A stretch of DNA of 37,030 nt from Nemertoderma westbladi (Eukaryota > Animalia > Xenacoelomorpha): positions 1-37,030 of the forward strand of contig JAUCBJ010003393.1 in assembly GCA_032718475.1 (NCBI GenBank), in the 5' to 3' direction. The notes beneath the pieces were generated by a model. The model had not been told where the DNA came from and did no database searches. It saw only the letters and a list, made by a program, of their open reading frames with translations. Position numbers and translations under genes: made by a program. Each line of letters opens with the position of its first letter. Within the stretch, counting starts at the first letter, position 1. Of the stretch, positions 5,648 to 31,270 are shown in pieces.

Positions 5648-5659
5648 TGGTGCGGTGAC
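5648..5659 (+). promoter_or_regulatory. BEL-B primer binding site, tRNA-His-like
   Basis: TGGTGCGGTGAC directly after the LTR; 11/12 match to the complement of the metazoan tRNA-His 3' end (TGGTGCCGTGAC). Confidence 0.8.
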
Positions 5660-6149
5660 AAATTTTGAAATCCAGGACAGACCTGCAAACTGCAAGGTAC
5701 AAACAGTCAGACAGCTCAGCAGTTCCGAATTTAAAAATCGCCAACTGCCGGTACCTACGCCATGATAATAACATTAATGAATACCAATCTGGCGGTCACT
5801 GGTAACCGGTAACGTACCTACTGTCATATACTGCAGATATAGGCTAATATGCCTGATATGATGACACAATATGGCTGACAGTCAGATATAATTGAAATGG
5901 ATACATAAACGCACGGCTTAACTAGCCCTAGAAGAAGCAGCCTAATGCAGTAGGCCTAATGTTATTTCTGTTATTTAATATTGATAATGCAATTCAAATG
6001 CAATTTGGAAATGGTGAGTCAAGTGATGATAGTATTATTATTATTATTGCCTACCTGCTTAGGCCTACCACTACCGGTACCGGTACATCTACTGAACGTT
6101 TACTGGCTGCTATCAACTGAACTTGACCGAAATTGTTAATTGTGAAAAA

Positions 6150-8705: not shown

Positions 8706-9549
8706 TATGATGGATAGTGAAAGTAAAGATGATGACTCAAAGTTAGTACACTATTTACCTCATCATCCCGTGTTCAAACTGGATTCCGAAACTACTCCAA
8801 TAAGAATGGTGTATGATGCATCCTCAAAGGCACATAAATCATTGAATAGTCTAAATGATTGTCTAGTTAGTGGTCCCAACCTTGTCGTTAATTTAACTGG
8901 ACAGTTATTTCGATTTCGCTTATGTAATATTGCTATATTAAGTGATGTAGAAAAGGCCTTTTTGAACATAGGCCTCCATGACAAAGATCGCAATGTATGT
9001 CGATTCTTATGGTTTAAAGATATGTCTAACCCTGTCATGAAAGATAACATTCAATGCTATAGATTTACACGAGTCCCATTTGGCATAATATCCAGTTTAT
9101 TTCTATTACTCGGTGTAATTTATGTTCATCTTGCAATGTATGCTGTAAAACATGAAGATCAAAGGGTTTTATGTGAAGAAATACATGATAATATGTATGT
9201 AGACAATGTTTTGCTGTCCTCAAATACACCTGCAGAAGGGTATGTTAAATATATTGAATTCAAACGGTGCTTCTCAGATGCATCACTCAATCTCAGACAA
9301 TTCATTTCAAATTCTGTGGAATTAATGAATCAAATACCCCCTCAAGACACTTGTGATAACTCTATTGTTAAAATATTAGGACTGACATGGGATACTGATG
9401 CTGATACAATTGCCATTCGAACTGTTAATGCATTAAAATGCAATGATAAATTAACTAAACGAAAATTGATAAATATGGTAGCTAGTTTTTTCAATCCAGT
9501 TAATTCAATTATTATTTCAGAAATCATGGACCTTAGGAAGAAACTATGA
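8626..9549 (+). pseudogene. pol: BEL-B reverse transcriptase (frameshifted at both ends)
   Basis: HYLPHHPV, RMVYDAS, SLNDCL, SDVEKAF, RFLW, RVPFG, YVDN, KILGLTW. Confidence 0.9.
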
Positions 9550-9601
9550 TTGGGATAAGGTACTACCATCTGAGTATCAAGAAGAATGGAAAAATTGTGT
9601 C

Positions 9602-12034
9602 ATGGCAATGAAAAGTGTAGGATTCAAATTTCCACGAAGAATTTTTAGTGATGATAAAGATATAGTTAAAGATATACGATATCAATTGATTTCCTTTACA
9701 GATGCATCAAATTTAGCATATGGGACAGCAATTTATGTTAGAAGGTGTAGTAACAAAACTATTGAAACTAATTTACTTTATGCAAAATCGCGTTTGGCGC
9801 CATTGCCAAAGGTAAAGGCTACTGGAGATGGTAAGGTCAAAGTATCAACTCCTAGACTGGAATTAGTAGCAATTGAAACTGGTATTAAATGCTTTCTATT
9901 TGTGATAAAACATTCCAACCTTGGATTCACTGATATTTATTTGTATTCTGACTCACAATGTGCTTTGCACTGGGTGCAATCTACGAAACCAATGAAAATA
10001 TTTGTTTCGAACAGAGTTAAAGAAATAAATAAATTACCCGCTGTAATTTATCAGTATGTACCAACTGATCAGAACCCCGCTGATCTATTAACACGTGGTG
10101 TAACATCAGAGGCTCTGTGTAACATGAAGTTTTGGTGGAATGGTCCCAACTGGCTCGTTAAGAATGAATCATTTTGGCCAAAATTATGTATGAACCCTAT
10201 TAAGAAAGAAGTTGAAATTGCAATATCAATAGAACATGCCGATATTACTTCAATACATAAAGTATTTGCATTGTCAACCTCATATCCATTAGATATGGAT
10301 CCTACCAGATACTCATCATACATTCAATTATTGCATGTTACAGCTTTTGCATTGCGTTTTATAGCAAAAAGGATGAAGAACAATGTTAAAATTAGAAATA
10401 TGTTTAACCATATTACACTAGATAGAAATATTCATACCAGTGAAGTTGTTATTGCTGAGGCATTATGGATAAAAACAATGCAGAGAATACATTATAAAGA
10501 TGTAATAGAAGATATTATTACTAAGAAATCAAACACTTTGGTTAATCAACTAGGCATATTTATTGATAAAAACAAAATGCTTAGATGTTCCGGACGTTTT
10601 CCTTTTACAGAGGGTTGCTTAGAAAGCAATTTTCCACTATTGTTGGCAAAATCCGATTATGTGACAAAACTGATTATTCTGGAGACACATGAATTGATAA
10701 TGCATGGACGAGTTAATCATACTCTAAGTGAACTCCAGAAAAGATATTGGATTCCACAAGGACGCTCCTTAGTACATCAGATATTGAAATCATGTTATGT
10801 ATGTAAACATTATGGAAATGGTCCCTATAGACTACCTGTATTTAGTCGTTTACCGGATGAGCGAATGGAGGGTTACAAACCTCCCTTTAGTATGACTGCC
10901 TTAGATTATTTTGGGCATATATTTACCAAGAGCTATAAAACAGATGGGGAAAAGGACAAGGTATGGGTATGCTTGTATACCTGCTTGGTTACAAGAGCTA
11001 TTCACTTATAATTGGTACCTGATATGTCTGCTATAGAATTCCTTTTGGCCCTTCAACGATTCTGTTCACGAAGAGGATATCCTAAAAGTATCCTATCTGA
11101 CAATGCATCTCAATTCCTTCTAGCTGATCTTGTCCTTAATGATTTCTGGGATAAATTAATGTTAGACGATGATCTTTCCGGATATCTTACAAAGCGGAGA
11201 ATTAAATGGAAGAACATCCCAGAACTATCACCTTGGCAAGGTGGAATATATGAAAGGCTTGTTGGAGTTGTAAAGACAGTTATGAGAAAGAGTATAGGAA
11301 GGAAACTTTTATATGTTCATCAATTACAAACTATATTGTGTCAAATTGAATATATGATCAACAGTAGACCTTTGACTTACATATCTAGTGAAATTGATGA
11401 TAAGAGGGTAATTACTCCAAATGATCTACTAATTCCAGGACATACTAAATTTATTCAACTATTTGAAGATCATAATGATGATGATGATACTGATTATCTA
11501 CCGAAAGACTCAAGTGTGATGGAAGTTAGGACAAGTTTTAAGAAACAAAACGAAATATTAAATGACTTTTGGTCGCGATGGAATAGAGATTATCTGGATA
11601 TGTTGATGGAGAGAAATACTATATACGATCATAAACACAAGAAGATTAATATTCGTAGCATTCCTTCAATTGGAGAAGTGGTATTACTAAAACAAGATGG
11701 AACTTCCAGGTGTTTCTGGAAAACTGTGATTATTCATGAACTTAATCACAGTAAAGATGGTGAAATCCGTTCTGTACAGGTGATGACCCCCAAAAAGAAA
11801 ATACTAACTCGACCCATAAGCTTATTATATCCATTGGAACTCACAATTGAAGATAAACGAAACAAGAGCAATGAAAAGAATCAAAGCGATTCGGATGGTA
11901 ACAAACATATTGCAAATAGACCAGTGAGGGAATCAGCAATTAAATGTAAGAAACGTATTAGAGATTTGTTACAATCAGATATATTGTTCTCCTTCTGTGG
12001 TGGGGAATGTTGTGAACTCAATAAAAGTACTTAA
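9602..12034 (+). pseudogene. pol: BEL-B RNase H + integrase, with an in-frame TAA at 11009..11011
   Basis: FTDASNLAYG, PRLEL, YSDSQ, NPADLLTRG; HHCC zinc finger; LDYFG, RAIHL*LVPD, SDNASQF, PWQGGIYERLVG; FWSRWNRDYL. Confidence 0.92.
11999..12007 (+). promoter_or_regulatory. BEL-B polypurine tract
   Basis: GGTGGGGAA immediately before the LTR start TGT. Confidence 0.75.
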
Positions 12035-12359
12035 TCTTATTCACGATTTTAGTAGATTACATTTGGTGTTGGGGGGTTATTTCGTGTCGGAAAGTATCTT
12101 TATATTTTGATAGATGTATTAGGTTGTGTTGATATATTATTACTACTGTACCCTTTTTTATTGTTGCAATCAGACTGCTATACTGCAGTACTGTCATATT
12201 GTTATCAGTGATTGGTGTAGATTGATGTAGTGCAGTAGTGCTATTATTTTTATGTACCACGGTCCTTATTACTACTAAATTTAGAATGCAGAATTGAGAT
12301 ATCTAAATACTGAAACTGCTGAAATGTTTTTATATCCGAACCACTATGGGTTCGTGACA
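12008..12359 (+). repeat. BEL-B 3' LTR (352 bp, complete)
   Basis: TGTTGTGAAC...GTTCGTGACA imperfect terminal inverted repeat; identity with 5422..5647. Confidence 0.92.
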
Positions 12360-13967
12360 GTGGGCGAGTCAAATGCCCGGGCGAACTACACAAAACATGA
12401 TACCCGTCCTCTAACCAGTGAGGCAGATGTACAGTCTACGGTGACAGACCAAACTCACGAGGAAACAATCCCCGCGCAGCGAATCCTAACTATCGCTAAC
12501 GGACCCAAATACCGTAAACTTGCCGCGGTGTGATTTATATGGTTTATATACGGGCTAGTGGATTAACAGACTAGCGTAACAATACTGACCGTACTAAATC
12601 AGTCAAAAGGGGGTCGTGCCTAAAGTAACAATACTGTCGGCAGAAACAACAGTCTAATAAGTAAATACTCCTCTTGCCATAAACTAAATATCATATATCC
12701 TAAATTTACAAACTACGAATAGTAAAACTACCGTAGATCCTATCTGAGAATAGCCTAAAGTAGGTAATAACTAGTAGAGCTCTAAGAGTACATATGTTTT
12801 AGGGCATGAGTGTGTGTTTGTGTGTTACGAATAAAATAATTTTGGTGTACTCCATTGTACTAGGTTTTATTGAATTTTGACCGAAACAATACCGGGCACT
12901 AGCTACGAAAATAAGCTAGTCGCACTCTGTAGGGCTTAATACTTACAAAATGACATCAAAGCTCTCTCCTTCCTATCCACAACTCAACCGGGCAATTATG
13001 GTGTTAGTAACTACACCCGTGATCGGCGCAAATACCAGATTCTGGTTGTAAGATAAGAAATAGTTGTTAATTGCTACCGTACGTTAGCTGATCTGGTATA
13101 CAAATTTGATTCTTGAATTTTGTTGCTGCGGTGGTTAGCAGCAATACCTATCAGTATGTGGCAAGGCGCGGTAGGATATTAACAAAACCTCCCTAGGCCA
13201 AGCATGTGCCAGTAGCAGAAATACTCCTTGCCTGATCAAATGACGCGAGCTCAGGCAGGGGGTTGCTACTAATGTATAAGCTACAAAGTGAACCGGTACC
13301 GAACAGGTACCGGTACCTGTGCCTGTGAACCGGTACCTGTGAACCGGTACAGTACTACAAATCACTAAATTATGGAACATATGCTGTCTGTACCTAAAGT
13401 GTACTTGCGTACTGACGAACAGCAATAGTTCACACCTGTAGGGAATACAGGTTAATCGGGGATTTTTAGTACGGGTTCTGCCTGAATCTGAGCTATTTGA
13501 TCCTAAATTTTGCAGCGTCCCAGGACGGCGTCACGCTTACCCTGATCTATAGGTCTTACGGCGGGCAAGGGCGTCAAACAAAGTCTTACCTTCCTCTGAA
13601 ACGGGCGCTGCATGGCAAGGTGGAGTATTTTCGAAGGGGGGGGGGGGGGGGGTGAAGGGGGCGCGCGGGCTAATCTAATGTGGGCGCTTAGCGTGTTGTG
13701 GACATCTTCTCCCTGCGTTGCTGATGGCCTGACAGTTTAAGCAGCCATCTCCCAAACGTTTGGCTGTCCCAATGGTGGACAAGACAAAATATACATGTTC
13801 AAAGTTTACAGTATATTTATGTAATTTACAAAAGATTTATCAAAGTTCAAGTTAATGTAACTAGAAAGGGTATACAAGATTAACAAGATAAGTTAAGGCA
13901 AATAGTTTAGAGTAATAAGATAACTTAATGGTGTTAGTGAGAGTGATAACCGAAGGCAAACCGGCCC

Positions 13968-14104
13968 TTATATAGCAAATATGGGACATAGAATTCACTA
14001 GAACCTTCCAGAGCATTCCATGGCCTCATATTGGAGCAATAAGATGTTCTATGCCCTATGATTGGCCCAACTCATCGTTCCACATGTTGTACGCACCTCA
14101 TTGG
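13968..14104 (-). promoter_or_regulatory. LTR Pol II promoter: three CCAAT boxes + TATATAA (3' LTR copy)
   Basis: ATTGG at 14030, 14061 and 14100; ttatata at 13968..13974; the same arrangement is in the 5' LTR. Confidence 0.6.
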
Positions 14105-14139
14105 CTTATCTAATCAATCAGATCGAAAATAAATAGCCC

Positions 14140-14224
14140 AAAAATGCAAATTTCCTGACTGGGATTCGAACTCGTAACCTAACTGTAATGTAACCAACGC
14201 CTTAACCATCTGACCACTGCGCCA
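14140..14224 (-). ncRNA. tRNA-derived Pol III cassette in the 3' LTR (A box, B box, T5 terminator)
   Basis: TGGCGCAGTGGTCAGATGGTTAAGGCG...GAGTTCGAATCCCAG...TTTTT; no intact acceptor stem. Confidence 0.6.
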
Positions 14225-14361
14225 ATAGAGTCACCTATGAATTAATGTGTACCAATATGAATAGGCATATTACGTTACTGCAATTAAATCAAAATACATC
14301 GGATTTTAGAAAGTTTTTACATTACACTACAAATGCTACATAACAGTGAAATAATCTATCA

Positions 14362-14368
14362 CCGCTCC
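14362..14368 (-). promoter_or_regulatory. BEL-C polypurine tract
   Basis: GGAGCGG directly upstream of the LTR TG on the minus strand. Confidence 0.6.
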
Positions 14369-15880
14369 ATGAAAACAGTAAGTAAGACTGTTTTCACCAA
14401 TCGAAATACAAACCATTGACTAAATATCTCTTAGGTCTAATAGTGGGGCCTAAAATACAAAACAATCACTGTCTATCTATTGCATACTTAATATTGCAGG
14501 TACGGCGTAAATACAATCCATCATACATACAAAATACAAATTTACTAGTCAACTTTAGTGCATAAAATACAAAAGAGGGCTTTCGGTTATCAAAATAAAC
14601 AAATTAGAACAAATAATTTCAAATGTTTCAATAATATATTACAAATATACATAATAAATTCCTCAAATTAAATCAGTTCAATATAAGTAAACATAATGCG
14701 CTAATAATTTCCAAATAAGTCTTAAAGTGTCCTCCTGACGATTTCAATAGTTCGTCCTACTGGTTTGAATATCTTCTCCTGAGCACTGATTGCTAACGGT
14801 AGGCTCGCAAGCATTCCTTCTCTATCTCGCTCCTCCAAATCCAAATAAAATGGTAGGCTCGCAAGCCTTCCTTCCTTTACCTCGCTCTCCTAATCCTTCA
14901 TCGAGCGGGCTCGTCCCCGCCCTCTAAGACGATTGGGTGGTGGTCGAGATCGAATTGGGCTCGGACTTCAGCGTCGAGCTGTCGATGGTTCTAAAATGCT
15001 AGGAAAGGGAACAACAGGAGTCTCGCACATACGTCGGGCACTCAATCCTCTAAATCCTCGTCCGATTCCAATCATTCATTTCGTAGTGTCGGACTGAGAG
15101 TCTCTACAACGCTAGGAGGGAGTCTAAGGGGTGGGACCGTTCTGTCTGCTGACACCTCACTCTCTGATGTTGTCTTAATCCTCATAGGTTCTGGCAAAAC
15201 GTATCCTGTCCCTCCTCGTGGTTCTCTGGGAAGGGAAACCGTGCCCCGAGTCATCCCGATTTGCGACTTCGATGTCGTCCTCTCGGCGACATTTACTACC
15301 TTCTTAATCTCCTTTCCGGCCTTCTGGCTTCTTCCTTCTTCTAAGTATATGAAGCTGCGGATCTTCCTGTGGATGACTTGTCCTTTCGGCTAGCGGCGTG
15401 GCCTTGAAGCCAGTCTCACGCAAAACGTCCGCCTCATCTAAAATACACGAGGTTACACCATTTGTGATAAAATGCGCTCCGGTATGCCCAAACTATCGAA
15501 TGCCAGGCTCCTTGATTCCGCTGTTCGACTCGCAATTTATCGAACTCTCCGTCGGTAATCTTGTTCACCACAGTCTGAAAATTTCATGTGTTCTTATTGT
15601 TAGGGTGTACCTGTAGGAAGTAGTCCCTAACAACCTTGAAACCGCTATCCAATGGCAATATATCTAGCACCTCTAAAAGTTCATCGTATTGAGGCATAGC
15701 TGACACGTATCCTTCCTTCGACATAATGAGAGGGTTTACGGCCCAAAATCCCAAATGCGATCTCATGGGGAAACGGCGTCACTGCGTCGACATATGTTCG
15801 TCTGCTAGATTCTCCCAATGGTCGAATAGCTGTCGAATGATCTTAACTGACATATACTTATAGGGAACGTCCCTAAGTTG

Positions 15881-16060
15881 GCACTCGGATGCCATATGAC
15901 CTTTAATATTGCAATATGTGCACTGAGCCACGAAACGCCAACAGGTGTAGAAAGTGTGTGAACGTTGATCCCCACACCAGTTGCACACTAAATCTGGTAG
16001 AGATATGTGTTTCGCTCCACATTTCTTTGCGTGATGGCCAGTAGCCCCGCATCTGCCACA
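15881..16060 (-). other. Three CCHC zinc knuckles in ORF3
   Basis: CGRCGATGHHAKKC, CNWCGDQRSHTFYTC, CTYCNIKGHMASEC. Confidence 0.9.
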
Positions 16061-16648
16061 AATGGTGTTGGCAGGATAACAAACTCGCTTATAGATGAGA
16101 TCCCCGATGGGGCGAGCGCTACCGTCCACGTGATAATTCTCATCATCCGGGTCAGTCGGTACGTTCGTCTCCGTAGGTTGTACACAAACCATGGCTTCGC
16201 TTTTCTCTAATTCGCGTATCTCGGTTCGCGTCTTCCTCGGAAGGTTCTCCTCTATTTCTATGAGTTGCCGCAATGGCTCGTCTATTATCGCAGACTAGGT
16301 CGGATCCTCATCGCCATGATGTGCGGTAGACTCGCGAGCCTTCCAGGATCCTTCTGGGCCTTTGAACTCCGCGTGGCGTTCCCCGTCGTAGGGTACTAAC
16401 ATCAACATCGACGGTCCGTCGACTAGGCTTCCCGCGTGAGTGAGATAAACGTCCCTAAAAACGCTAAGTCCCTCACGCGTGAAAACTTCGCAGTGCGCAT
16501 CGGTGTTATAAAAGGGTTGGAGAAATCGGCGGAATACATCAGTACGCGTCCTTCCTCCGTCGTAAATGGTATGTCCTTCACCGAGACATAACAGATGTCG
16601 CTTTAGAGTCCTAGACACTACATTGGCGATGAAGCATACGTTCACCGA

Positions 16649-17266
16649 AGATTCAATCGCCAAATAGTATTGCAAGATTATTCGTGGAGGTGAGGTAATC
16701 GCCCAATACACGCAACTTCGCCACTTCAACTGTGACTCAAACTCGTTTACGCCAGGGGTATCTCCCTCATCGTATACGTCTGTGTATTTGCTCCTCTTAC
16801 TCTCTTTATCTCCCAACTGAACATGAGATATGAGTGAGATATAATCCGTTCCAGTTTTTAGCGTGTTATACTCTCTGAAATATCCTTGCTCGATAGCCCA
16901 AAGCAACAATGGTCTAGTATCCACGTAAGGCGTAGGCAATTGATCCTCCTCCTCGGGCATTCCTGCGAAATCACTAATAAGGTCCTCCCGTACACCGGAT
17001 CCGATCTTGACGATACTCTTATCAAGTACAATGTCACGCATGGCCTTTGGCAACATCCTAGCTTCTATGCTACAAGCCAGGTCCATGGATTTAATTATTC
17101 GTTTTATCATTGCGTGTCTTTGCGTCTTTCCTTCAGGCATAGGCATCTTTCTATCGCTCCTCTGTCGGCTGAATACGTGTAGCACTCTGTCAGGTACACG
17201 AATCTGTATGGTCTTTGAAGTGAGGCTCTGCTGATGGCTTCTTCCTTCATTATCATAAAACATATA
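16649..17266 (-). other. WRN/EXD/RNase D-like DEDDy exonuclease domain in ORF3
   Basis: ExoI YMFYDNEG; LPKAMRDIVLDKSIVKIGSGVREDL resembles the ExoII consensus LPxxLxxLLxDxxIxKVGxGxxxD; YVDTRPL; ExoIII-like W...YYLAIES. Confidence 0.7.
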
Positions 17267-18700
17267 ACCGTTCTCATGCAGAGATTGACTCATCGCGTCC
17301 CAATCGTTGAGTAAATTGTCAGTAGGGTTCCAAATTCTCCCTATGGACTTTTTGTCGTCGAAACTAATAGGTTTCCCCGTCCAATTGGTCGCAATGTCGG
17401 TTTCGGTTTCGAACGTGGCGACTCCGATCCATAATCAAATCGTTTTAGCCAGATATCCTCGCAAGATACAAGGTACGATATCCATCCCCGCACGATCCAC
17501 TTCCTTAAAATCCGTAATATGTAGAGGCACGTTGCGTATGATTTTCTGAACTATTGTTCTACGCAACTCCGCCACATCTAACACATCACCAAACGTAACC
17601 GATGGGAGGAAATCCAGGTTCGAAATGATCTCCGGGTGTTCAACTATGGGAATCTCGTAAGTTGTCTCCTCTCGGGTTGGTATACTAATAGGAAAGCTGG
17701 TTGGTCTCGCGACTGGTACTACCGCTTTAGTAGGATGGGGCTGAGGTTCTTGCGTCATCTCGACATGAGGTATCTGTAATCTCTGCGACAAATGCTGAGC
17801 AAAGGTGATACTATCGAAGAGTTCCGGTGTCATCTCCTTCGGTTCAGTTTGATCGTAGGATATCCAATAAAATGGTAGGCTCGCGAGCCTTCCACCAAAC
17901 TCCTCGATCTCGCCTTTCTCGTATGCTTTGTACGCCCTATAGAGGCTCAAAGCTTCCTGTTTCTCTTGTGTCGACTTATTAGACTCGTCCACTATCATAC
18001 TATAGACTTCTGGTTCTACTAATTTGGGTTCATAAATAACAATTTTGCCCATGTTCGGTCCACTCATTTTAAACGAATGGTACGGATTTGTCAAAGGGTA
18101 TCTGCCTTCTTGGTAACACAGACTTTGGTGGTATGAACATCGTGCTAATATCGGCTCGGGGTTCTCCGAGTTCAAGCGCATAGGAATCGCGTTGTCTTGG
18201 TCACGCATATATCCTCCACATTTATAGAACAGTTTATAAATGGAGAATGCGTCCTTGGTCTCTAGATCCGCTCCTCGAGCGCATCTATAAAGATGCATTC
18301 CATCGAATTCGTCCCTAGCTGCAGGCAAGGGTTCACTCCCCGTCAAATATTGCAGCGTATGATATAATCGGCATATCTCCGTGTCTGGATCCTCGCAAAT
18401 GTCACTAGCGTCGCATAACGCATCGTAGGGGTACAAGGCATTGAACTCCGCGCGTACCTCCTCCGCTCTTTTGTCATAAGCGTCCAACCGCTGTCGCCTA
18501 ACATTCGGGTCCACCTTGGATTTAGCGAGCTTGGCCGTACTCCTAGCTATACTCTCCACTCCAAACACGTTAAAGTTTTTGGCTCCATAACGATTAAACG
18601 GTGCCTGGTGCTCCTGCTCCTGTGTAAATCCCTGACATAACTCCTTGTAAATCTTCTCCGCCATCATATACGCGTATATATGGTTACATATCGTTACGTT

Positions 18701-18729
18701 CTACTAGATGAAGCACAAATAGAGGTTAG
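18701..18729 (-). promoter_or_regulatory. Candidate branch point + splice acceptor in front of ORF3
   Basis: CTAAC-CTCTATTTGTGCTTCATCTAG|TAG| followed by 11 open codons to the ATG at 18667. Confidence 0.6.
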
Positions 18730-19435
18730 ATGTGAGGAGACTTAGAGTTTTGTCAGCTTTTGGCTCAACTTTGCTCTAAAACCCCTACCCATTTGCCTAA
18801 TGACTTCGGGTTTCACGTGATTTCGCACTGGCTCCTAATCCAAAAAAAAGTGCCGATAAAAAACGAATTCCGGGTAAACTAGCCGTGAGTCTAAAATACT
18901 CACCTTTTAATTTCCCAAACTACTTTCCCAAAGAAAAATAGTGCAGTCGAGAATTAATTCGGTCTAAAATAATAGTAGACACGACTACGTAGAACAAGGC
19001 CGATTTTCTTTTCCAAAAAAATTTTTATCGGTAGGCTTGCAAGCCTTCCATCCGCTCTTGTCCTCCCCAATTTTAATTTTTATCTAGCTGTATCCTAGAA
19101 TTCGCATCCACTGGAGAATCGTTTTTCTTAAATTTAAATCCAACCAAATGGATTTGTCTAATAAATTTTGAAAAATTGTCTCACTTGTGGGTTCCAAGTA
19201 GAATTCCATTCCTACTGTAACACAATACCGCTCCTATATGTGATACATAAGGGTTCTACCCTCCATGTTCACATATAAAGACAATGGAATTCCACCACTG
19301 CCTTTATCTACAGTGAAGAGGAATACAAATGTGCATACAGTAATACAAAATACTAAATCGCTAAAATACAGTAAGGCTATGTGGCGACCATCGAGGGTCC
19401 CACATCTCTATTTACTTAGATTGGGTGGAGATTTG

Positions 19436-19482
19436 TAGTCTCCTGTCTCGTTTCTAGTCTCCTGTCTCGTTTCTAGTCTCCT
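19436..19482. repeat. 19-bp tandem duplication at the pol stop
   Basis: tagtctcctgtctcgtttc x2.5. Confidence 0.9.
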
Positions 19483-20886
19483 CAAGGAGCACGAGATGTT
19501 GTACAGGCCTATCTACGGTACGTCCGTCAATAGTCCGTACAGTAACTGTCCTTATTACACCAGATGTAGGGTGCGTGGTCAAAATGACTCCAGTCAGCCA
19601 AAACCGTCGTTTCAAATTGGTTTCAGCCAATAAAACATGGTCACCTTGTCTCAAACATCGGGTATTAAGATACCAAGAGGTTCTGGCCAAAATAGAGGGC
19701 AAATAGTGCTTCTGCCATATTTCCCAGAATTTGTTGGCTACAACTGAGTGATTTTCCAAGCTTTGTTGCCGTATCCGTCGTTATCGACAGGTATCGAAGT
19801 GGGCAACAATGTCATCAGCGCCTGCATAAGCAGGTGCGCTGGTGTCAAGGCAAACTGTGAGTCGTTGTTGTCTGGGATCAAAGCGATTGGACTAGTGAAC
19901 TAGAACTTAGTTACTGGACTAGAAAACCGCGTCGATTTCTATTAACAACGTCGTCAGTTGGTCATCTGTCAAGATGCGTTGCGTCGGTATTACTTTCGCC
20001 ATAGCCGTCTTGATTGACCCAATCAGTCTTTCCCAAACGCCACCTCTCCACGGACTGTCAGAAGTGTTAAAGCTCCAGACAATACAGTGAGGACGTAGTT
20101 CTTCGGAAATCTGGTTTTGGTCCAACTTTTTTAAGGCTCTGGTGATTTCATTCCATGCACCCACAAAGTTAGTCCTTGGTCGCAATAAATGGATTTGACC
20201 AATCTGCGTCTAGCGATAAATCGCCGTAAGGCTAGGATAAAGGCGTTGGTGGTTAAATCTGTCACAAGCTCAATATGGACAGCTCTGCTGGCCATGCAAG
20301 TGAAGATCAATCCCCAGCGTTTTACCTGTACCCTTCTGCATTTCGCGATTATGGGTCCAAAACAGTCTATCCCTGTCTCAGTGAAAGGGGGTCAAAAGCC
20401 TGTAATCTTGCTAGTGGTAGTTCACACATTTCTTGGTGTCCTATCCTCGCTCGCGTGCACTTTCTTACAAATCATACAGTTCCGTGTTACCAAACTCAAT
20501 GCCTTGCTAGGCCTAATCAGTACAAACCTCGAGCGTAAGTGTGATAGACAGTGATGCCGACCTACGTGTTTCAGTCGTACATGTGCGTCCAGTATCATAG
20601 CGCGCTGTAAGCGCGCGTTGCGGTATGATGATAGGATATCAAAGTCAATGTTTTGGAGTCTGGACTTGTGACAAAGTAAGCCCCTATAGATTATCAGACT
20701 CCAACTCAGGATCGGTGAAGGATTGATCTGTTTACCCTGATTGATCGCTGTGAACTCTCGTGCGAAATATCGCAATTGATAATGTCTTATAATATCAACT
20801 TCACAAAGACCAACTTTCTCCAAGGTAAGCCTTCTAGGAAAGTCGCGTTTGCCTCTGGCATATTGAGCCATGCTAACTTGCGGCAC
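19454..20886 (-). pseudogene. pol: BEL-C integrase (fragmented)
   Basis: HVRLKH...CMIC; GIDCFGP; IFTCMASRAVHIE; TNFVGA; SPWRGGVWERLIGSIK; KFWEIWQKHYL. Confidence 0.9.
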
Positions 20887-21360
20887 GCGTCAGTCCATGA
20901 TCTAGTTAGGTTGACTATCCTGTCAACGTAAGTGTTAGTGACGTCATCAGGTAAGGTATAGTCAAAGTGTGGGTACTTGTTCGGACTTGGTAGGCCCACG
21001 GGCCTTCCGGTGAGTGTCTCCCTTTGTACAATAGGTTTGTCTGAGTCCTCAAGTATTTTAATCTCCATGGTCTTACCTTTACCGTCCACACTCATTGAAT
21101 TGACTGGCAGTAACGGTTTCAACTCTACAGTATTAGTGTGTTCCTGTGAGCTCGTAAGCTTCCTAACCTTAGTCCCACGTTTACCTGTAGATGGTAAGTC
21201 AAGTATTTTCCTTGAGTGGAGTGTGATCGCTGTGGCCACACCTTCGATGCCCAAGGAAATCAAATTCGGTAAGTTGTTAATACCTAGTGGGTGTGTACTA
21301 GTCCTCTCCAATGGATTCATTGCGTCCTTATAGCACACGTCGTTACTTTCCAATTGTTTG

Positions 21361-21786
21361 TCTAGTGGAAAGTCTAGTAGACAGTCTGGTGAGGCGTCCG
21401 GCGAACAGTCTGGTGAGATGGGTGGTGAGACATAGCACGGAACTTCCGGTGAAATGTCCTGTCGTCTGTCCCAAAGAAAGTCTGGCGTAGCTTCTGTCAG
21501 AATGTCTGGTCCAAAGTCTAGTGGACAGTCTGTCGAGATGTATGGAGGAAAGTCTGGTGAGATGTCCGGTAGACAATCTGTCGAGAGTTCCATAAAACAA
21601 TCTGGCGAATAATCCGGAAAACAGTCTGGTGTCGCTTCTGGCGAATAATCTGGCGAGTCATCTCGTGAACAAAGAAACGTCTGGTGAAATCTCCCGCGGA
21701 ACATCCGGTGAAAGATTCGTACGAATGTCTGGTCGAGTGTCTGCTGAGACGTCTGGCGTAATGTCAGGTCTAACGTCCAGGTCATC
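21361..21786 (-). repeat. Degenerate 12-bp coding minisatellite (about 35 units, xxPD peptide) in the RNase H-integrase linker
   Basis: Period-12 units such as tctggtgagatg, tccggtgaaatg, tctggcgaataa; protein SPDYSPEATPDCFPDYSPD... Confidence 0.85.
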
Positions 21787-21860
21787 AGATTTCATCCGTC
21801 CTTGTTTACTCTTGACCTTGGCGTTGGCTTTCACTTTGGACTTAACAACAGTGTCGATTT

Positions 21861-22716
21861 TTATCTCGGCACCCTCCGGTACCGTGTTAGTTGTCGCGTC
21901 AAATAACGGTGGCCATTCGTCCGATGGTCGTGGTAGGAAGTCAGGTCCTCTAAACCAAAAGGATTTATTGTCCGGTTTACAAAAGTCAATGACGCGATGT
22001 CAGCTGGGTTCAGTTTCCCTGGACAGTGACGCCAATCTTGTTTGTGCGACAGGTCCAATATTTCAGCCCATCTGTTGGCTACAAAAGTCTTGAACTTAAA
22101 TGTTTCGTTGTTTATGTAGCAAAGTACCAACGTGGCATCCGTCTAATACGTGACCTTCAAGTTAGCCTCCAGCTCGCGTTGAACTAGACTGACAATATCG
22201 GTGGATATCGTCCCGGCTTGCAGCTCTCCACGAGGTACAGTCATATACTTCAATGGCATTGTTCTAGCCCTAGAAATAACGAGAGACACATCGTAGCTGT
22301 CCGATTCCACTTGTTGTCTAAGGTATAAGGTAACCCCCAGTCCATCCTTACTAGCGTCGCTGAAACTGTGAAGCTCTAAGTCGGCAGGAAAGGTGGTCTG
22401 CAAAGGAAAGTATACCCTCGGTATGGTATAGTCTTGTAAGAACGTCAGTTGGGCTTCCCAGTCCTTCCATTGTTCAGCTAACTTTGCTGGGATAGGATCA
22501 TCCCATTCCAGTCCGGCTTGCCAAATGCTGCGGAGTATGATCCTGGCGTGTAGGATCACTGGACTAATGAGACATAATGGGTCATACAATCGACTCATGG
22601 TCGATAAGCAAGTCCTCTTTGTGAGAGGTCTAGTCTGGTCATTGGACCTTACTCGCACCCTAAACCTATCGGTGTTTGGGTCCCAACTAAGTCCTAATAC
22701 CTTGGTCGTAGGTTGA
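21861..22716 (-). pseudogene. pol: BEL-C connection/RNase H region
   Basis: KVLGLSWD, LTKR, LYDPLCLISP, WDDP, HSFSDAS, PRGEL, Y*TDA, FVANRW, NPADIAS. Confidence 0.9.
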
Positions 22717-23973
22717 GGTTATAGGTCTAAGTCCAAGTCACCTCCACTGTGATCCATCGGGTCAAATGAGTTTACTAGTTCGGGTTCGTTGGAAGCGAAC
22801 TTAGTGAGGCGAAATCCGCCCTCGGCGAGACAATCTTGGAGTTGGTGCGCTACGGTCGTAGCATACTCCAGAGTGTCACAACTCTTGAGGCCGTCACTCT
22901 CGTTCCACTGTCTGAGCTACTTCTGGGTCAAATTGGTCTCGTCTGTCCAATGCTGTTTACTTTAAGGCGTACATGGTGCAGTTAGGGCTATCCCTGGCCC
23001 CGAAGACTCTTACCTGCATTTGGTAAGTTTCTGGCAGAAGTTTCTGTCCGGGTACCAAAGAAACCTCAAACTGTCCCTGTCCCACTCCAAAGCCTTAACC
23101 TGGTGAAACATGGCCTCTACATCACAGGTGAACTTTGTGTTGTCTAAAACGCATTAGGACTCCCATGAGGTAATTATTCATATTCAGCCTGTCCATCAGT
23201 TCGCTGTACATCCCTTGTATAGACATCCCTTGGTAAAGCGCGGCGCAGTCATTGACTACACGCACCTTGCCAGGTTTGTCCGTGTCCGGGTGTCTAACAA
23301 AATGATGTGGCAGGTAATATGTTTGATCTGTGGTTACCTCGGGATTTAACATCCTAATGGCGTATCCCTTTTGGAGATACGTCTGAAGTTGCGCATTGTA
23401 TTGCATATGGGCTGTCTCATCACGCAACAATCGCTGCCTTATTGATTTGAGTAGCCTCAAAGCAAGCGGGTAGTTGTTAACGAGCTTAGGTTGTCCATGG
23501 CGCCACAACATGCCAATTTCGTAGTGGCCATTCGCAGTCTGGCGAATGGTATCTCTCATAATATTTAATGACCGTTTTTCCTGTTCTGACATAGCGGTCT
23601 CGTAACTACCAGGTTCTGCTGAGTCCTGTTCTAACCATTTAATGGTCCGTTCAGTCAGCAGTCGGTCAAGCGCTGCTTGCACTGCACCATAGTCCTCGTC
23701 TACGTCTTCGTCCGCTGCGGTGGCTAGTGTCAATGTGTCTGGTAGGCTCGCAAGCCTTCCGGTGTCACTAGTCGGCGTCGAAACGTCGTGAGGCGGTTTG
23801 ATAACCTTTTGATCTGTCGGTATGCTCGCAAGCCTTCCAAGATCAACGACCGGTGTCGAAGCCTGGTGAGTGGGGTCAATGACCTTCGGATTTATCGGTA
23901 GACTCGCAAGCCTTCCAAAACCCTCATTCATCGAGTCATCCACAGCAACAACCCTTTGGTCTTCAGTAGTCAA
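22717..23973 (-). pseudogene. pol: BEL-C reverse transcriptase and upstream linker; YVDD motif damaged by a small deletion near 22895
   Basis: GHYEIGMLW, YYLPHHFV, KVRVVNDCAA, DVEAMFHQV, LRFLW, VFGARDSP, DGLKS, GGFRLTKFASN. Confidence 0.9.
23741..23916 (-). repeat. Three 78-bp-period repeats in the PR-RT linker, each carrying the stem-loop
   Basis: GRLAS(L/I)P...KVI.P.H..STP repeated; motif starts at 23741, 23819, 23897. Confidence 0.85.
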
Positions 23974-24078
23974 TACAACCTCTTTCGCTGCAAGTAGCTG
24001 TAAGTCAGAGGTCCGTGTGGTTGTGTCCAGATCAGTTACGTCAGTATCAGTTACGTCAGTGTTAGCGACGCAAGTCTG

Positions 24079-24811
24079 TCATAGTACAGTCTGTACAATT
24101 GGACCACAGGAGTGTGAAGGAGAATTATCTATCGTGGTAGTCAGTAAACTACACATACTCAAAACGTCGTCCTCCTGGTCACTTACCTCTAGTGAACGCA
24201 CTGGTGCTCTAGTATACCAACCTATGGGAGTTCTACATGTGTAGGGGTTGCCCGCTGTAATAACAGATGGGCGTGTCTCCCATACCTGATGTAAGTTAAA
24301 CTGGTCTGTCCCAATCAACATCTCGATTGAGCGAAAGTTAACAGGACATTCTGGTATTCCAAGGTGTCGGAAATACTTACGATCTTCTGCTGATTGCTGC
24401 GAAGTCCTTCGTAGCTGCAAAGGTCAAATTTCTAACCGGAAGTAATGAGCGCTCCACCTTGCTGTGTTCCACTTTGGAAAGAAGAGTATCTAAAGTTAAT
24501 TTAACTCTCGTCACAGGAATCACTCTCTTACCATGCATGCTGCTTACAGTATACTGAGCAGTCTTACCTTTACTCATGTCAGTAACTACATCGGCTACTT
24601 GTTCGTCGACGCAACTATGCGATGACGCAGAGTCTAGGATAGCGTATATACGCCTGCTCCCTCGGGTTCCGGTAATCTTTATAGGAATCACGCTAAACCC
24701 TTTCAATTGGTTCTGTGTGAGGAGTGTTATGGATGGTTGTTCCTCCTCCGCATGCACATAAAAGGTGTCATCTTCCTCCTCGTCCTCGTCCGATGATCCT
24801 GATTGATCCAT
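24079..24811 (-). pseudogene. BEL-C aspartic protease (frameshifted)
   Basis: IPIKI...IYAILDSASSHSCV; IEMLIGTD; TPIGW. Confidence 0.85.
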
Positions 24812-24936
24812 ACAGTTAGTATAGAAGTTATGGATTTCGCATGGGCGCGCCCCATGCGAAATCCATAACTTCTATACTAACTGTATGGATCAATCAGGAT
24901 CATCGGACGAGGACGAGGAGGAAGATGACACCTTTT
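24760..24936. repeat. Perfect inverted repeat, 86-bp arms, 5-nt spacer
   Basis: 24760..24845 is the reverse complement of 24851..24936; spacer cgcgc. Confidence 0.95.
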
Positions 24937-27900
24937 CTAGCCGCTTTATCTGGATGCTTTCGTCGAAAGTGTTTGGTGGGAGTATGACTATTTGTGTGGA
25001 GTAACGCGTCATGGTTACGTCCACATAGAGGACATGTATCATGTCCTGGGCAATCCTTCCGGACGTGTCCAGGCATGGTACATCTCCAACAAGAATCCAA
25101 CAGTCGAATTTGGAGTCTTCTCTCTTCAACTCCCAACTCTCTAAAGGCACGACATCCACGTATGTAATATCCGCTGTAGTTTCTGCTGTTTCGTTCACAA
25201 TATGGGCATCCCATATAATCCGCCGGCAACTGTTGTCGTGGCTGTTTGGTGCCGATAGGCGTCAGAACTTTAGAAGTGTCTGTTGGGGTGGCATAAGTCA
25301 CGGTTTTTAAGTTTCGGCTCACCAGACAGAACCTGGAGCAAGTAATTAAACTTCTCCGTTGAGGTGAAGGCACACTTAGCGATATGGGACTCTACGTAGT
25401 CTACCAGCCTACGCCAGTGCTTCGTGTTGCCAGAGAACTTCGGCGGTTGTTGTGCCGGTAATCCGTGTCTGGCCGCAAACTTAGCAATCTCGCTAACTAA
25501 GTCTAACTGTCCACGTCCCTGTTCGGTTACGTCGTCCAGTCATTCCCTTCCGTGCGTTATCCGTCGGTAGGAAATGTTAATGGGATCTTCTTCTCGATGG
25601 TTCGGAGTCTGTCTAGTCTCCTGTTCTCTCCGTGGTGGTCGATGTTGTCTAGGTTGTTCCACTTCCACAGTCGCTCTTCTATCTGAGGTAGTCGATCCGT
25701 TACAGGTCGCATTATTTCGGTGAGTCTGTTGGTGCGAATCGTCTCAGTCGGTTGTAACACAGGTTTCTGGACGGGTGTTTCTCATGGAGGATTGTTGATG
25801 TAATGATTCGTCGATCTCTCCTCTCGTTTGTAATCATCCGCCGGTCCAGTACGGAATATTTCCCTCTCGGTCGACTCCGAGTCACTAGAGGAGTCGCTGT
25901 CATCCGGATAAGGTGGTTGATGTGTTCGCGTCCGGTGTATTATTCTTGTCGGTCGCGTCTGTCTTTGTACGGCGTCCTCGGTTCTTCGTCTTCTGGTAGG
26001 CTCGCAAGCCTTCCATGAAGTCATAGGTCTCGATAAGTTCCTGTGGATGTACTCCACAAACTTCGTCCATTGTTCGGTGTCCTCGGTTCATCACCGTCTG
26101 GTAGGCTTGCAAGCCTTCCACGAAGTCATAGGTCTCGTTACACAGTGTGTCAGTGGTCGAATAAAGCAGCCAGGATTCGTAGTCGGTCTGTAAATGACTG
26201 GGTTCGCGCAGCACGTTACAGGTTTAACTGCTAACGGCTTACTTACCTGCTTAACTGTCATAAGTACAGGTTCCTCTCTTCCTACGAGTAAACTCTGGCT
26301 TACTGTAGGTGGACTACTTACTTCACCTGCTAAAATCGGCAATGACGTCGCTCTAGGTTGCGGTATTTCTGTCACAACAAACCTGTTACCTTGCATTGAA
26401 CGCACAGGTGATATTTCCTTCGGTTTTGCAACTATGACCAGTTTTACTGGAGTTGTGGGTTTGAGCATAGGAATAACTTGGGGAAAACATTGACAATAAT
26501 CCTCGATGAACTCCTCTCCTTGATCTATAACTCCCACACTTCCTTCCTCGATTCGCTTCTGAATTCCGCGATATTGAGTCTTCATGCGATCCAGGGCAGA
26601 CAAGTCATGTCTAGCTCGAGACCATATAGATCTATAAGTTTCGAGTTCGAGGTCCTCTTGCGCGTTCGCCACCTCGCACGATCTGCAATTTAGTTCGAAC
26701 TGGAGCCGCATCTCCCTTTCGCGTCGATCGGCTACCTGTTGTTGTGCCGCTCACTCCGCTTCCTGTATGGCTAAATGAGCGTTTATTTGTCATGCCTCCA
26801 ACTTGGCACGAGCATTGGATGCTGCTTTCTTCCGTGCTAACTCAGCTGCGTTTACCACCGCAACTCGTGCTAACTCGTCAGCTGCTGCCTGTCGTGCCAA
26901 CTCGTCAGCTGCCGCTTGTCGTGCTAACTCATCAGCTGCCGCCTGTCGTGCTAACTCGTCGGCTGCTGCCGCTGCGGCCGCTTTTCGCCCTAAATCCACC
27001 TCTAATCTCCGCATTTCTGATGCTTCAAATTCGGCTTGAGCCTGGAGTTTTGCAAATTTCGCTACATCGTCTCGTCACTGTCTTTCTCTTTCAGCCGCAA
27101 TCTGTGCCAACTGCCGTTGCGTTTCTTCCTCAGCGACTTGTTGTCGGCTTGCAACCTCCTGTTGTTGTCGAGTAATTACAGACGCTGTCCTACTAACATC
27201 GCCAATGTCGCTCCGTACACTAACAAATGATCTATCCAGTTGTGGAATTTGGTAGGCTCGCGAGCCTTCCGTAGTTAGAACTTCCGTCATCCCTCACGGT
27301 TCGACTTCCAGTTCTTCGATCGGTACGCTGCATCTACGAAGAAAATTGGTGAGTGTCTCTAACCTCCCGTCCAGTTAGTATAGTTCTTCTTCCTCTTTGG
27401 GTTGTAACAACGCGTCCGAAACTGACTCACCTAACAGTTGGTCAAACTGCTGAGCCAATCTTACTACTGATTTAAACTGAATGAGGCTTTCCCTCGCACT
27501 TACCAACTTATCTATTATCTTTACCTGAGTAAAGTTGTCGCCACGCAACTCTGCAAGTTCGTGTAAACCTTTCAGTTTATCTACGGAGGCATGTATCCTA
27601 CTTTCTATCCTTACCTGTAAGGTGTAGAACTCGTATCTCGACATTGGGGCGGTTAACTCGCGTAAAACGCGAAAACTTTCTCCGAAGTTTCGAGTAATCT
27701 GGGCCATGTGTCCTCCTATACTCCTAATAATGTTCTCCTGGCTTCCAGTCGAACTTACCATGTCCGGTTCCCACGATCTGGTCTGCGGGACGGTAAGGAA
27801 ATCTTCGATTCTGCCGTCGCCATGCGTTGCAGCTTCTGGTATTTCCGTTCGGGGTACCGGCGATGCACGCGGTGTGACATCGGTAGAATCTTGGGTTTTT

Positions 27901-27989
27901 CTTCTCGGTTCGTCTACTGTCGATCTATCCAGGTCGCACGAGTCATAGTCGGTAGGTGGTTATCGAGTCGAATGTGGGGTATCACTCAT
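24937..27989 (-). pseudogene. gag: BEL-C Gag (long coiled-coil N-terminus, BEL-type Cys-His array; many stops)
   Basis: ATG at 27989 is in frame with the fragments starting at 27761, 27290, 27014 and 26711; CPYC...C, CWRCTMPGHVRKDC, CPLCGRNHDALLH. Confidence 0.8.
26864..26976 (-). repeat. Four 27-bp repeats encoding AAADELARQ
   Basis: tcgtgctaactcgtcagctgc... at period 27. Confidence 0.9.
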
Positions 27990-28208: not shown

Positions 28209-29868
28209 AAATGTAGATCAACAAGTACAAATAATAGGCAAAACAGCAACGTCTAATGGGAAAATAAGTACCAACAACACTACTAATTAGACAGTGGAAC
28301 CCACAAATTTTGAGTACTACTGTGCTCTTAAGTTTGAACGACACGAGTCGTAAAACTTACGCTCCTTTGATCTTCCAGTCGTGCAAATTCCCAAATACAA
28401 ACCGGACGTGGGTCGTTCCGTTTTCAGCATCGCGGACAAATTTTATGTCTCCCAAACTTTGCGAAAAGCGGTCTAATCCCTCGAAGCGGTCCAGAAATGA
28501 GTCCTTGAGTCCTGAAAGGTCGAAGGTGAGAGTTTTACTTCTACTCTACGAAAATCTTCCTAGGTACTGATACAACTTGGTCTTTAAACCCTATGTACCT
28601 TTTCAAGTACCGAAAAGTAACACCGCACACACACGGCGTAAAACAAATTACTACAAAGTGTCTATTCTAATACATGGGCGAGTCAAATACCCGGCGAACT
28701 AGACAAAACAGGATACCCGTCCTCTAACCGGTGAGGCAGATGTACATTCTATGGTGACAGACCAAACTCACAAGGAAACAATCCCCGCGCAGTGAATCCT
28801 AACTATCACTAATGGACCCAAATACCGTAAACTTGCCGCCGTGTGATTTATATGGTTTATATACGGGCTAGTGGATTTATAGACTAGCGTAACAATACTG
28901 ACCGTACTAAATCAGTCAAAAGGGGGTCGTGCCTAAAGTAACAATACTGTCGGCAGAAACAACAGTCTAATAAGTAAATACTCCTCTTGCCATAAACTAA
29001 ATATCATATATCCTAAATTTACAAACTACGAATAGTAAAACTACCGTAGATCCTATCTGAGAATAACCTAAAGTAGGTAATAACTAGTAGAGCTCTAAGA
29101 GTACATATGTTTTAGGGCATGAGTGTGTGTTTGTGTGTTACGAATACAACAATTTTGGTGTACTCCATTGTACTAGGTTTTATTGAATTTTGACCGAAAC
29201 AATACCAGGCACTAGCTACGAAAATAAGCTAGTCGCACTCTGTAGGGCTTAATACTTACAAAATGACATCGAAGCTCTCTCCTTCCTATCCACAACTCAA
29301 CCGGGCAATTACGGTGTTAGTAACTACACCCGTGATCGGCACAAATACCAGATTCTGGTTGTAAGATAAGAAATAGTTGTTAATTGCTACCGTACGTTAG
29401 CTGATCTGGTATACAAATTTGATTCTAGAATTTTATTGCTGCGGTGGTTAGCAGCAATACCTATCAGTATGTGGCAAGGCGCGGTAGGATATTAACAAAA
29501 CCTCCCTAGGCCAAGCATGTGCCAGTAGCAGAAATACTCCTTGCCTGATCAAATGTCGCGGGCTCAGGCAGGGGGTGGGTACTAATGTATAAGCTACAAA
29601 GTGAACCGGTACCGAACTGTCAGTACTACAAATCACTAAATTATGGAACATAATATGCTGTCTGTACTTAAAGTGTACTTGCGTACTGAATATAAATGTT
29701 TAAGGTTTACAGCATATTTATGTAATTTACCAAAGATTTATCAAAGTTCAAGTTAATGTAACTAGAAAGGGTATACAAGATTAACAAGATAAGTTAAGGC
29801 AAATAGTGTAGGGTAATAAGATAACTTAATGGTGTTAGTGAGAGTGATAACCGAAGGCAAACCGGCCC

Positions 29869-30005
29869 TTATATAGCAAATATGGGACATAGAATTCACT
29901 AGAACCTTCCAGAGCATTCCATGGCCTCACATTGGAGCAATAAGATGTTCTATGCCCAATGATTGGCCCAACTCATCGTTCCACATATTGTACGCACCTC
30001 ATTGG
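29869..30005 (-). promoter_or_regulatory. LTR Pol II promoter (5' LTR copy): CCAAT x3 + TATATAA
   Basis: attgg at 29931, 29962 and 30001; ttatata at 29869..29875. Confidence 0.6.
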
Positions 30006-30040
30006 CTTATCTAATCAATCAGATCGAAAATAAATAGCCC

Positions 30041-30124
30041 AAAACTGCAAATTTCCCAACTGGGATTCGAACTCGTAACCTAACTGTAATGTAACCAACG
30101 CCTTAACCATCTGACCACTGCGCC
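30041..30124 (-). ncRNA. tRNA-derived Pol III cassette in the 5' LTR
   Basis: Same A box and B box as 14140..14224, with a T4 terminator. Confidence 0.6.
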
Positions 30125-30263
30125 AATAGAGTCACCTATGAATTAATTTTTTACCAATATGAATAGGCATATTACGTTACTGCAATTAAATCAAAATACG
30201 TCGGATTTTAGAAAGTTTTTACGTTACACTACAAATGCTACTTAACAGTGAAATAATCCATCA

Positions 30264-31270
30264 CCTGATCTAATATAATCCATTGACCCTTTGCTACACA
30301 TAATTAACTTATCATTGGTACCCGGAATTGTTCCTAAAGGTATGAAAATAACAAAAATTATCTTCAGCATATAAATATCTTAATTACTATCTACAAAGCA
30401 AAAAATTTTCGAAAAATTCGTTATAAATTAAGGTGTTATAATGTTGTTAGTGTCCTAACTTTCTTTATTGAAAAGTTTGTTTGTACCAATTAAAATATTA
30501 TTTTTAGAAAAAAAATATCACATCACATCTCGTTAATCTGGGTTTTAAAGAGGACGTTCGCCAGATTTAGCGAATTATCAGACGCTGTAGAAATTTCCAA
30601 ATAGATCTAAATTAGTTAAATTAAAAAGGTCTAAATTAGACCTAAGCTTTCGATACCGTCGACCGTAACATTCTATGTCAAAGATTGGTACATTATGGAA
30701 TTCGGGGTATACCTCTGGAATGGTTTAAAAATTATCTCTGCAACAGATACCAATACGTTCAATATGGTTCGAATGCATCCTCACTTCGGCCTAACACCAT
30801 GGGGTACCCCAGGGATCCATTTTGGGCCCAGGTTTGTTTCTCATGTATATTAATTAATGACATTGTGGAATGTTCTAAACTTTATTCCAGAACAAATTCG
30901 GCTTACATTGTACCATACTCTAGTTAGTCCATATCTGTTGTTTGGTTTAATATGCATTCCAAATAAAAGGAAAAAATAAAATATCCAAATAAAAGCAGGA
31001 AGACATACATGTATCGTTGACAGTGTGTTACTCTAATTTTAAACACAGAAAATCTTTAATAAAACTGCCAATTGAATTTAAGCTCAAAATTTATTTTTAA
31101 TTAATAGACAAATCACACACGTTCTGCCTCAAATTAACGTTTGCCATTGCTCAGAACATTGTATACTCAAAATACCGCCCGCCATCTATCAGCCCCAGCT
31201 TTATGGAATGACCTACCACATTAAATTATACACTCAACTTCCTTGGCCCAATTTAAACGCAGATTAGATG
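30264..31270 (+). mobile_element. Old, heavily decayed CR1/L2-group LINE RT remnant
   Basis: PLLHIINLSLVPGIVP, AFDTVDRNIL, HYGIRGIPLEWFKNYLCNRYQYV, G-VPQGSILGP (frameshifted), INDI. Confidence 0.8.

Follow-up and report, generated by a model that had tools for sequence, protein, structure and literature searches.

The motif and the element that carries it

We analysed a 37,030-nt stretch of DNA from the xenacoelomorph Nemertoderma westbladi (assembly GCA_032718475.1, contig JAUCBJ010003393.1, positions 1 to 37,030), referred to here as the window, in which one 17.9-kb BEL/Pao element carries 12 copies of a 20-nt near-palindrome. The element extends from about position 30265 to 12361 on the minus strand, which is its sense strand, with two long terminal repeats (LTRs) in direct orientation flanking gag-pol and with a third open reading frame (ORF3) after pol (Table 1). 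On the evidence given below, the motif is a real, selected and family-wide cis motif of unusual design, for which we infer a function.

When the window was searched with a pattern allowing up to 3 mismatches, 12 sites were found, against 0.01 expected and a maximum of 1 in 100 shuffles, and all 12 starts listed in an initial annotation of this DNA proved to be exact. As the motif is near-palindromic, 11 of these sites also matched on the opposite strand; the single orientation claimed in that annotation is borne out by an A at motif positions 3 and 18, read on the minus strand, in every copy. The same asymmetry recurs in 12/12, none of the copies being a perfect palindrome of one half-site or the other. 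Twelve of the 20 columns are invariant, and variation falls mostly in the central six positions. A profile scan of the window scored the copies at 28–37 bits and the next-best site at only 7.7, so half-decayed copies are absent; the scan detected the motif in neither LTR and in none of the neighbouring elements of the window, in agreement with the earlier statement that other elements lack it. The copies are confined to the internal region, from gag through the 3′ region, with none in the leader.

The motif had been described as an 8-bp stem with a fixed A.A mismatch and a 4-nt loop. The A.A opposition stands, but the stem consists of 7 Watson-Crick pairs and, because loop positions 9 and 12 can pair too, the entire 20-mer is self-complementary. 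The loop set first proposed (TGCG, CGCG or TGCA) fails for the copy at 20989 (CGTG), and the stem deviates in four copies (14798, 16325, 23819 and 23897).

Nine copies lie in coding and three in non-coding sequence, the copy at 19030 having rightly been called intergenic. All three reading phases are used by the nine (five copies in phase 0, three in phase 1 and one in phase 2), as expected from the claimed independence of frame. Among the peptide readings, WKAREST at 16325 was recovered, whereas EG(L/S)(R/Q)AY in gag applies only to 27251 (as EGSRAY); 25995 and 26100 read WKAC(E/K)PT, since gag lies in frame -3 (14 stops in 1019 codons, versus 64 and 48 in the other frames).

Seven of the 12 copies sit in tandem units, and tandem duplication brings the number of independent sites down to 8, which is what the initial annotation had estimated. 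These sites are spaced 1.2–2.8 kb apart, more evenly than expected at random (P 0.013 for a minimum gap of 200 nt and P 0.031 for one of 400 nt). The copies at 17874 and 14852 have 9/10 downstream bases in common, and such shared flanks suggest copying between distant sites. A match of the twelve copies to the twelve pentamers of a capsid was considered and dropped, because contig joints suggest that the number of units varies among family members.

Table 1. Positions in the window of the motif copies and of the main parts of the BEL/Pao element
Feature	Positions	Strand	Description
5′ LTR	28675..30265	-	~1.6 kb; no motif; self-BLAST 93.1% and 96.5% to 3′ LTR
gag	24900..27989	-	frame -3; decayed by in-frame stops; Cys/His knuckle region near 24996-25208
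Motif copy	27251..27270	-	gag N-terminal part; phase 2; EGSRAY; loop CGCG
Motif copy	26100..26119	-	gag linker; phase 1; WKACKPT; loop TGCA; in 105-nt tandem pair
Motif copy	25995..26014	-	gag linker; phase 1; WKACEPT; loop TGCG
pol	19481..24871	-	protease, reverse transcriptase (RT), RNase H/Peptidase_A17, integrase; stops and frameshifts
Motif copy	23897..23916	-	pol; unit 1 of 78-nt tandem; phase 0; deviation 23902 private
Motif copy	23819..23838	-	pol; unit 2 of 78-nt tandem; phase 0; deviation 23823 private
Motif copy	23741..23760	-	pol; unit 3 of 78-nt tandem; phase 0; GRLASLP
Variant motif copy	20989..21008	-	RNase H-integrase linker; pair 8:13 changed on both sides; loop CGTG; GRPVGLP
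Motif copy	19030..19049	-	non-coding; pol-ORF3 interval; loop TGCA
Candidate splice acceptor ahead of ORF3	18701..18729	-	branch-point-like CTAAC, pyrimidine tract, AG
ORF3	15400..18667	-	~1080 codons; one frame with in-frame stops read as X; 3′ end approximate
Motif copy	17874..17893	-	ORF3; phase 0; GRLASLP; loop CGCG
Motif copy	16325..16344	-	ORF3; phase 1; WKAREST; loop CGCG; deviation 16330 private
Motif copy	14852..14871	-	3′ region ahead of LTR; in 54-nt tandem pair
Motif copy	14798..14817	-	3′ region; stem deviation at 14813
3′ LTR	12361..14363	-	~370-nt insertion (13416-13787); no motif; abuts LTR of neighbouring BEL element

Constraint and predicted pairing

The element family is abundant in four public runs of one organism (10066, 15890, 8519 and 447 contigs), two of which represent one sample and one of which is possibly the source of the window; the contigs are mostly 90–99% alike to the window copy. 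Three of the four stem deviations are private to the window copy: at 16330, 99–100% of the other depth differed from the window in the four runs, and at 23823 and 23902, 99.97–100% of the depth did so in three runs. The remaining deviation, at 14813 in copy 14798, was not seen among the 40 of 2539 rows listed. Within 23712–23946, no other position of the 60 motif bases was variable (≥8%) in 181, 364 and 130 contigs from three runs representing two samples, for which the variant table is complete (12 rows at ≥8%); the fourth run had no contigs over this interval.

Among the 78-nt tandem units, the spacers differ at 23/58 positions and the motif at 1/20 (Fisher P 0.004), or at 0/19 once the private site is masked (P 0.0004). 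As the motif was picked for its conservation, both tests lean somewhat in its favour. Excess conservation, which the initial annotation had sought across family members, is present here between tandem units. As the copies occupy three reading phases and include three non-coding ones, the constraint would act on nucleotides, and these data point to selection on the motif at the nucleotide level.

The predicted energy of the bare hairpin was -7.6 kcal/mol, and that of homoduplexes of the 8 undeviated copies -31 to -35 kcal/mol. For the commonest loop type, the predicted homoduplex reached -30.7 kcal/mol in sense versus -22.9 kcal/mol in antisense RNA; with G.U pairs allowed, every one of the four loop types is self-complementary in sense RNA, against only two in antisense. 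Copy-with-copy pairing was predicted for the three clusters in sense RNA (15.5, 17.3 and 17.9 bp) and for 2/3 clusters on the antisense strand, with 6/7 clustered copies predicted to pair with a neighbouring copy rather than as a hairpin. The pair swap noted earlier for the 20989 copy was confirmed, both sides of pair 8:13 being changed.

Rfam gave 0 matches in the window at E 1 and only chance-level matches (E 2–9) around three copies. Three resemblances were dropped, namely to the histone stem-loop, for which no Rfam match was obtained, to bacterial GTAG-type REP sequences, and to the YNMG tetraloop, which misfits the TGCA and CGTG loops.

The motif had 0 matches in viral contigs and 73 single matches in metagenome contigs. 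The latter were rejected as chance or unrelated prokaryotic sequence; none of the 73 contigs had a second copy (≤3 mismatches) or tblastn similarity to the window ORFs, and 72 had a GC content of at least 0.54. As these collections are poor in animal genomes, absence from them says little on related families. No relatives were found among viral contigs, and a piece of pol retrieved 8 and 1 proteins at 27–40% identity, with no close relative. The motif peptides were absent from the pol-related proteins, three of which carried only RLASL. In titles and abstract openings we found no LTR retrotransposon described as having a near-identical motif scattered over its ORFs; this search did not extend to subscription papers or repeat libraries, which may include the family. 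Five papers containing an 11-nt piece of the motif look unrelated by title.

ORF3 and the remainder of the element

ORF3 comprises an N-terminal part of no known match, a middle part weakly resembling DEDDy 3′-5′ exonucleases and two canonical CCHC zinc knuckles (PF00098, E 0.0018 in Pfam). No transmembrane segment was found in ORF3 (hydropathy maximum 1.48), and it is not env-like. In Atlas, the middle part fell into a cluster with the name Werner-like (0.84, recognition score low; PF01612 in 38% of the cluster). Its best alignment was with RNase D (E 0.058, below significance), on a stretch that we take to be ExoII; stretches resembling ExoI and ExoIII were picked out by eye from the known motifs. 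The DEDDy assignment did not reach significance when Pfam, NCBIfam and PDB were searched, Pfam giving no match for it. Two single-sequence structure models had a pLDDT of 32, and the fold search was uninformative. No homologues of ORF3 were found by word search, by HMMER over 1.84 billion representatives, or in phages, plasmids, NCBIfam and PHROGs, and the N-terminal part had no usable Atlas match.

The pol gene is of Pao type, with the PR-RT-RH-IN order (PF05380, E 2e-40; PF17921, E 2e-5 in Pfam), and resembles BEL polyproteins, 8 of which were used in tblastn, at 27–40% identity. Two element-specific linker expansions (~24178–23682 and 21850–20829) contain all four pol copies of the motif and, by tblastn comparison, are much longer than the corresponding linkers of other BEL proteins. 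Degenerate 12/24-nt repeats at 21359–21790 encode a Pro/Asp/Ser-rich stretch that enlarges the RNase H-integrase linker. The extent of gag was drawn from stop counts per frame, tblastn of BEL polyproteins and an ATG read off the sequence. A 27-nt tandem repeat in gag (26865–26970) encodes an alanine-rich, probably helical stretch. At the gag-pol junction there is an 86-nt perfect inverted repeat with a 5-nt spacer (24760–24936); it looks like a local inversion-duplication in the window copy or an assembly fold-back, and the joint across it was present in three runs.

The two LTRs differ by 2.9% substitutions over 1585 aligned columns. The insertion at 13416–13787, found in the 3′ LTR only, carries a long G run. 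A tRNA-like A-box and B-box were seen by eye at 30081–30127 and, in the 3′ LTR, near 14180–14225, with no call by ARAGORN or Rfam; they are possibly a captured short interspersed element or an RNA polymerase III promoter. No TGG-type primer-binding site was found directly after the aligned 5′ LTR end (28660–28675); either this end is placed wrongly or an unusual primer may be used. A second BEL/Pao element ends one base from the 3′ LTR (5422–12359, plus strand; 226-nt repeats 99% alike), in which neither a third ORF nor the motif was found. At 1162–5359, long minus-strand ORFs upstream of an RT were observed together with a 75-nt tandem array (3506–3920), with no Pfam match above the cut-off.

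Readings of the motif

In the reading that we favour, with a probability of roughly 0.45, the copies would be tags scattered along the genomic RNA of the element, through which this RNA is recognised as its own and packaged. Each tag would first fold into a short hairpin, which the zinc-knuckle proteins of the element (Gag, possibly ORF3) would help to convert into a 20-bp duplex formed with a second tag. Where both tags belong to one RNA, such pairing would compact the genome of roughly 16 kb; where they belong to two RNAs, it would dimerise them; and in either case it would select the RNA for inclusion in the particle. The A.A opposition, as the likely protein determinant, would be presented at an identical helix end by hairpin and duplex alike. 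Tandem duplication, and copying from one site to a distant one, probably gave rise to new sites, in linkers that can take seven more residues. Identity at the level of sequence would be expected because each tag has to match the others, either as a pairing partner or as a target of the same reader, and RNA self-recognition would account for the fixed polarity, the absence from the LTRs and the even spacing. The nucleotide-level constraint, the predicted pairing of clustered copies, the self-complementary loops of sense RNA and the two-sided change at 20989 also speak for this reading. Of the distributed recognition code put forward in the initial annotation, the family-wide, frame-independent, nucleotide-constrained, internal and evenly spread motif stands, but its stem-loop form is in doubt.

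Several observations weigh against such tags. Four copies lie downstream of the candidate ORF3 splice acceptor, and thus the tag would not distinguish genomic from spliced RNA. Uniform orientation is found in the DNA-level VANC motifs too (PMC5735166). In 220-nt contexts, the hairpin was predicted for 5/12 copies in sense and 7/12 in antisense RNA. The stem-loop label, in doubt from the pairing between neighbouring copies, gains nothing from the flanks, which extend the stem on neither strand (Stouffer z -0.16 in sense, 8 sites). Covariation, proposed at the outset as a check, amounts to a single pair in one copy and was equalled in 121 of 500 shuffles, which is not significant. The change at 20989 weakens the predicted pairing with other copies (-21 to -27 kcal/mol), two G.U-compatible stem changes carry no weight because they are private mutations, and every loop variant could also be reached by simple CpG transitions of CGCG. 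Change between the LTRs is CpG-biased (13/112 versus 33/1473; GpC control 7/136); of the private transitions inside the element, 8/22 among the rows listed are at CpG (P 0.12). Finally, the contrast in variable positions between motif (0/60) and flank (6–8/175) among the family contigs is by itself too sparse and not significant.

The dimer initiation site (DIS) of retroviruses is a comparable dimerisation signal. As with DIS and the PAL sequences of Ty1, a stable homoduplex is predicted for the 8 undeviated copies; such signals occur, however, as one or few copies in the 5′ leader, whereas here there are 12, none of them in the leader. Palindromic dimer signals have been described in Ty1 (PMC6844567), and palindrome-driven RNA self-recognition is known as well (PMC13079385). 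Ty1 PAL1/PAL2 are likewise self-complementary stretches of an LTR-retroelement RNA that can pair within or between genomes with Gag as chaperone, but they are few and located in the 5′ untranslated region (PMC6844567), while the present copies are spread across the internal region, mostly in ORFs. Dispersed packaging signals are known in RNA viruses (MS2, picornaviruses, hepatitis B virus (HBV); PMC6281560), in which many short stem-loops run through the coding sequence of a genome that needs selection and condensation, and in which spacing matters (PMC6281560; 10.64898/2026.06.18.733228 for SARS-CoV-2). The motif studied here is also a sequence-structure motif repeated along the genome; the viral signals vary around a short core with graded affinity (PMC6281560), whereas ours are near-identical self-complementary 20-mers, known from sequence. 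The motif boxes of Sireviruses resemble it in being symmetric, present in high copy number and carried by a lineage of LTR retrotransposons that has a third ORF, but they belong to plant Ty1/copia elements and are non-coding, clustered in the LTRs and ahead of the env-like gene (PMC2829016).

A more elaborate version, which appears doubtful to us, is a private RNA code, in which the regularly spaced 20-nt tag and a dedicated reader from the third gene (exonuclease fold, zinc knuckles) would coat the genomic RNA to pack it, transport it or hide it from host silencing. If true, the reader-tag pair would be a self-encoded, RNA-level counterpart of the plant VANC-motif system.

The main alternative, which we consider rather unlikely, is that the copies are instead DNA sites, where an element protein (ORF3) would bind the near-palindrome in chromatin along the body of the element and counter host silencing, as VANC of VANDAL does. 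The near-dyad symmetry would suit a dimeric DNA binder and variation is gathered in the six central positions; however, perfect palindromes of one half-site or the other are absent among the copies. The centre stays self-complementary, with one two-sided change, something that half-site binding would not require. As in the VANC motifs of Arabidopsis VANDAL, the copies are family-specific, multiplied in tandem and in one orientation, in an element with an extra gene (PMC5735166). The VANC motifs, on the other hand, belong to a plant DNA transposon, are 9 nt long without being palindromic, and occur mainly in non-coding tandem repeats, with binding shown (PMC5735166), whereas the evidence here comes from sequence, with 9/12 copies in ORFs and 7/12 in tandem units. 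The internal region is not CpG-depleted (observed/expected 1.01, versus 0.56 and 0.73 in two neighbouring elements), but the region to the right of the element also has a value of 1.01 and lacks the motif. Against DNA sites, moreover, neither LTR, where the promoter is located, has a copy, and the leads on ORF3 indicate RNA-binding modules.

That the copies are RNA hairpins read mainly by ORF3, its exonuclease-like fold serving not in packaging but as an adaptor or shield (for transport to the germ-line nucleus, or for protection from decay or small-RNA pathways), is unlikely. The weak DEDDy lead from two sources, the CCHC knuckles and the lack of env character agree with it, but the assignment is below significance in all three databases and the structure models are uninformative. 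The exonuclease-homology domain of Egalitarian encloses stem-loops, including one in the coding sequence of the I-factor retrotransposon (the ILS; PMC13186709). In that case, however, the reader is a host protein, the element is of the non-LTR type, and the signals are bent, bulged and sequence-diverse helices, not one fixed 20-mer (PMC13186709). DEDDy ORF3s are also described in rotifer LTR elements, and those of the bdelloid Juno and Vesta elements are, like ours, non-env, placed after pol and provided with exonuclease-like motifs (PMC5408684). These elements are apparently not BEL/Pao, and the available text of that source notes no repeated cis motif (PMC5408684); in our element the exonuclease is a lead. 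The neighbouring BEL element, in which no third ORF was found, is also without the motif, as are 9 BEL proteins of other origin at the peptide level, but this co-occurrence of motif and ORF3 comes from a single family.

Binding by a host protein co-opted by the element (an RNA export or transport adaptor, or a transcription factor) seems improbable. A sequence fixed at every site would be expected of an unchanging host partner, and retrotransposons exploit host transport signals (PMC13186709), but Rfam gave no match in the window at E 1 and no relevant family at E 10 around the three copies, every other element in the window lacks the motif, and a specificity of 20 nt is long for a host factor. 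A functionless by-product, with recombination or template switching re-copying one palindrome, is strongly disfavoured and very improbable: the flanks common to distant copies do show copying and the four pol copies sit in expanded linkers, but decayed intermediates are absent, the motif is retained while tandem spacers diverge by 40%, and it is invariant across the family contigs.

To our knowledge, little is known of how LTR retrotransposons choose and condense their RNA beyond the leader signals of yeast Ty elements. Multi-site self-recognition codes are already known from RNA viruses and VANDAL transposons, and this motif would be related to them. A near-invariant 20-mer along the whole genome costs the element peptide insertions in three proteins, and with it the question of RNA selection becomes testable with one short oligonucleotide. 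If the sites act as DNA, an animal system comparable to VANC anti-silencing would be at hand. With ORF3 as the reader, should this hold, a function would be provided for the unexplained non-env third ORFs of animal retroelements, together with a compact, orthogonal RNA tag-reader pair.

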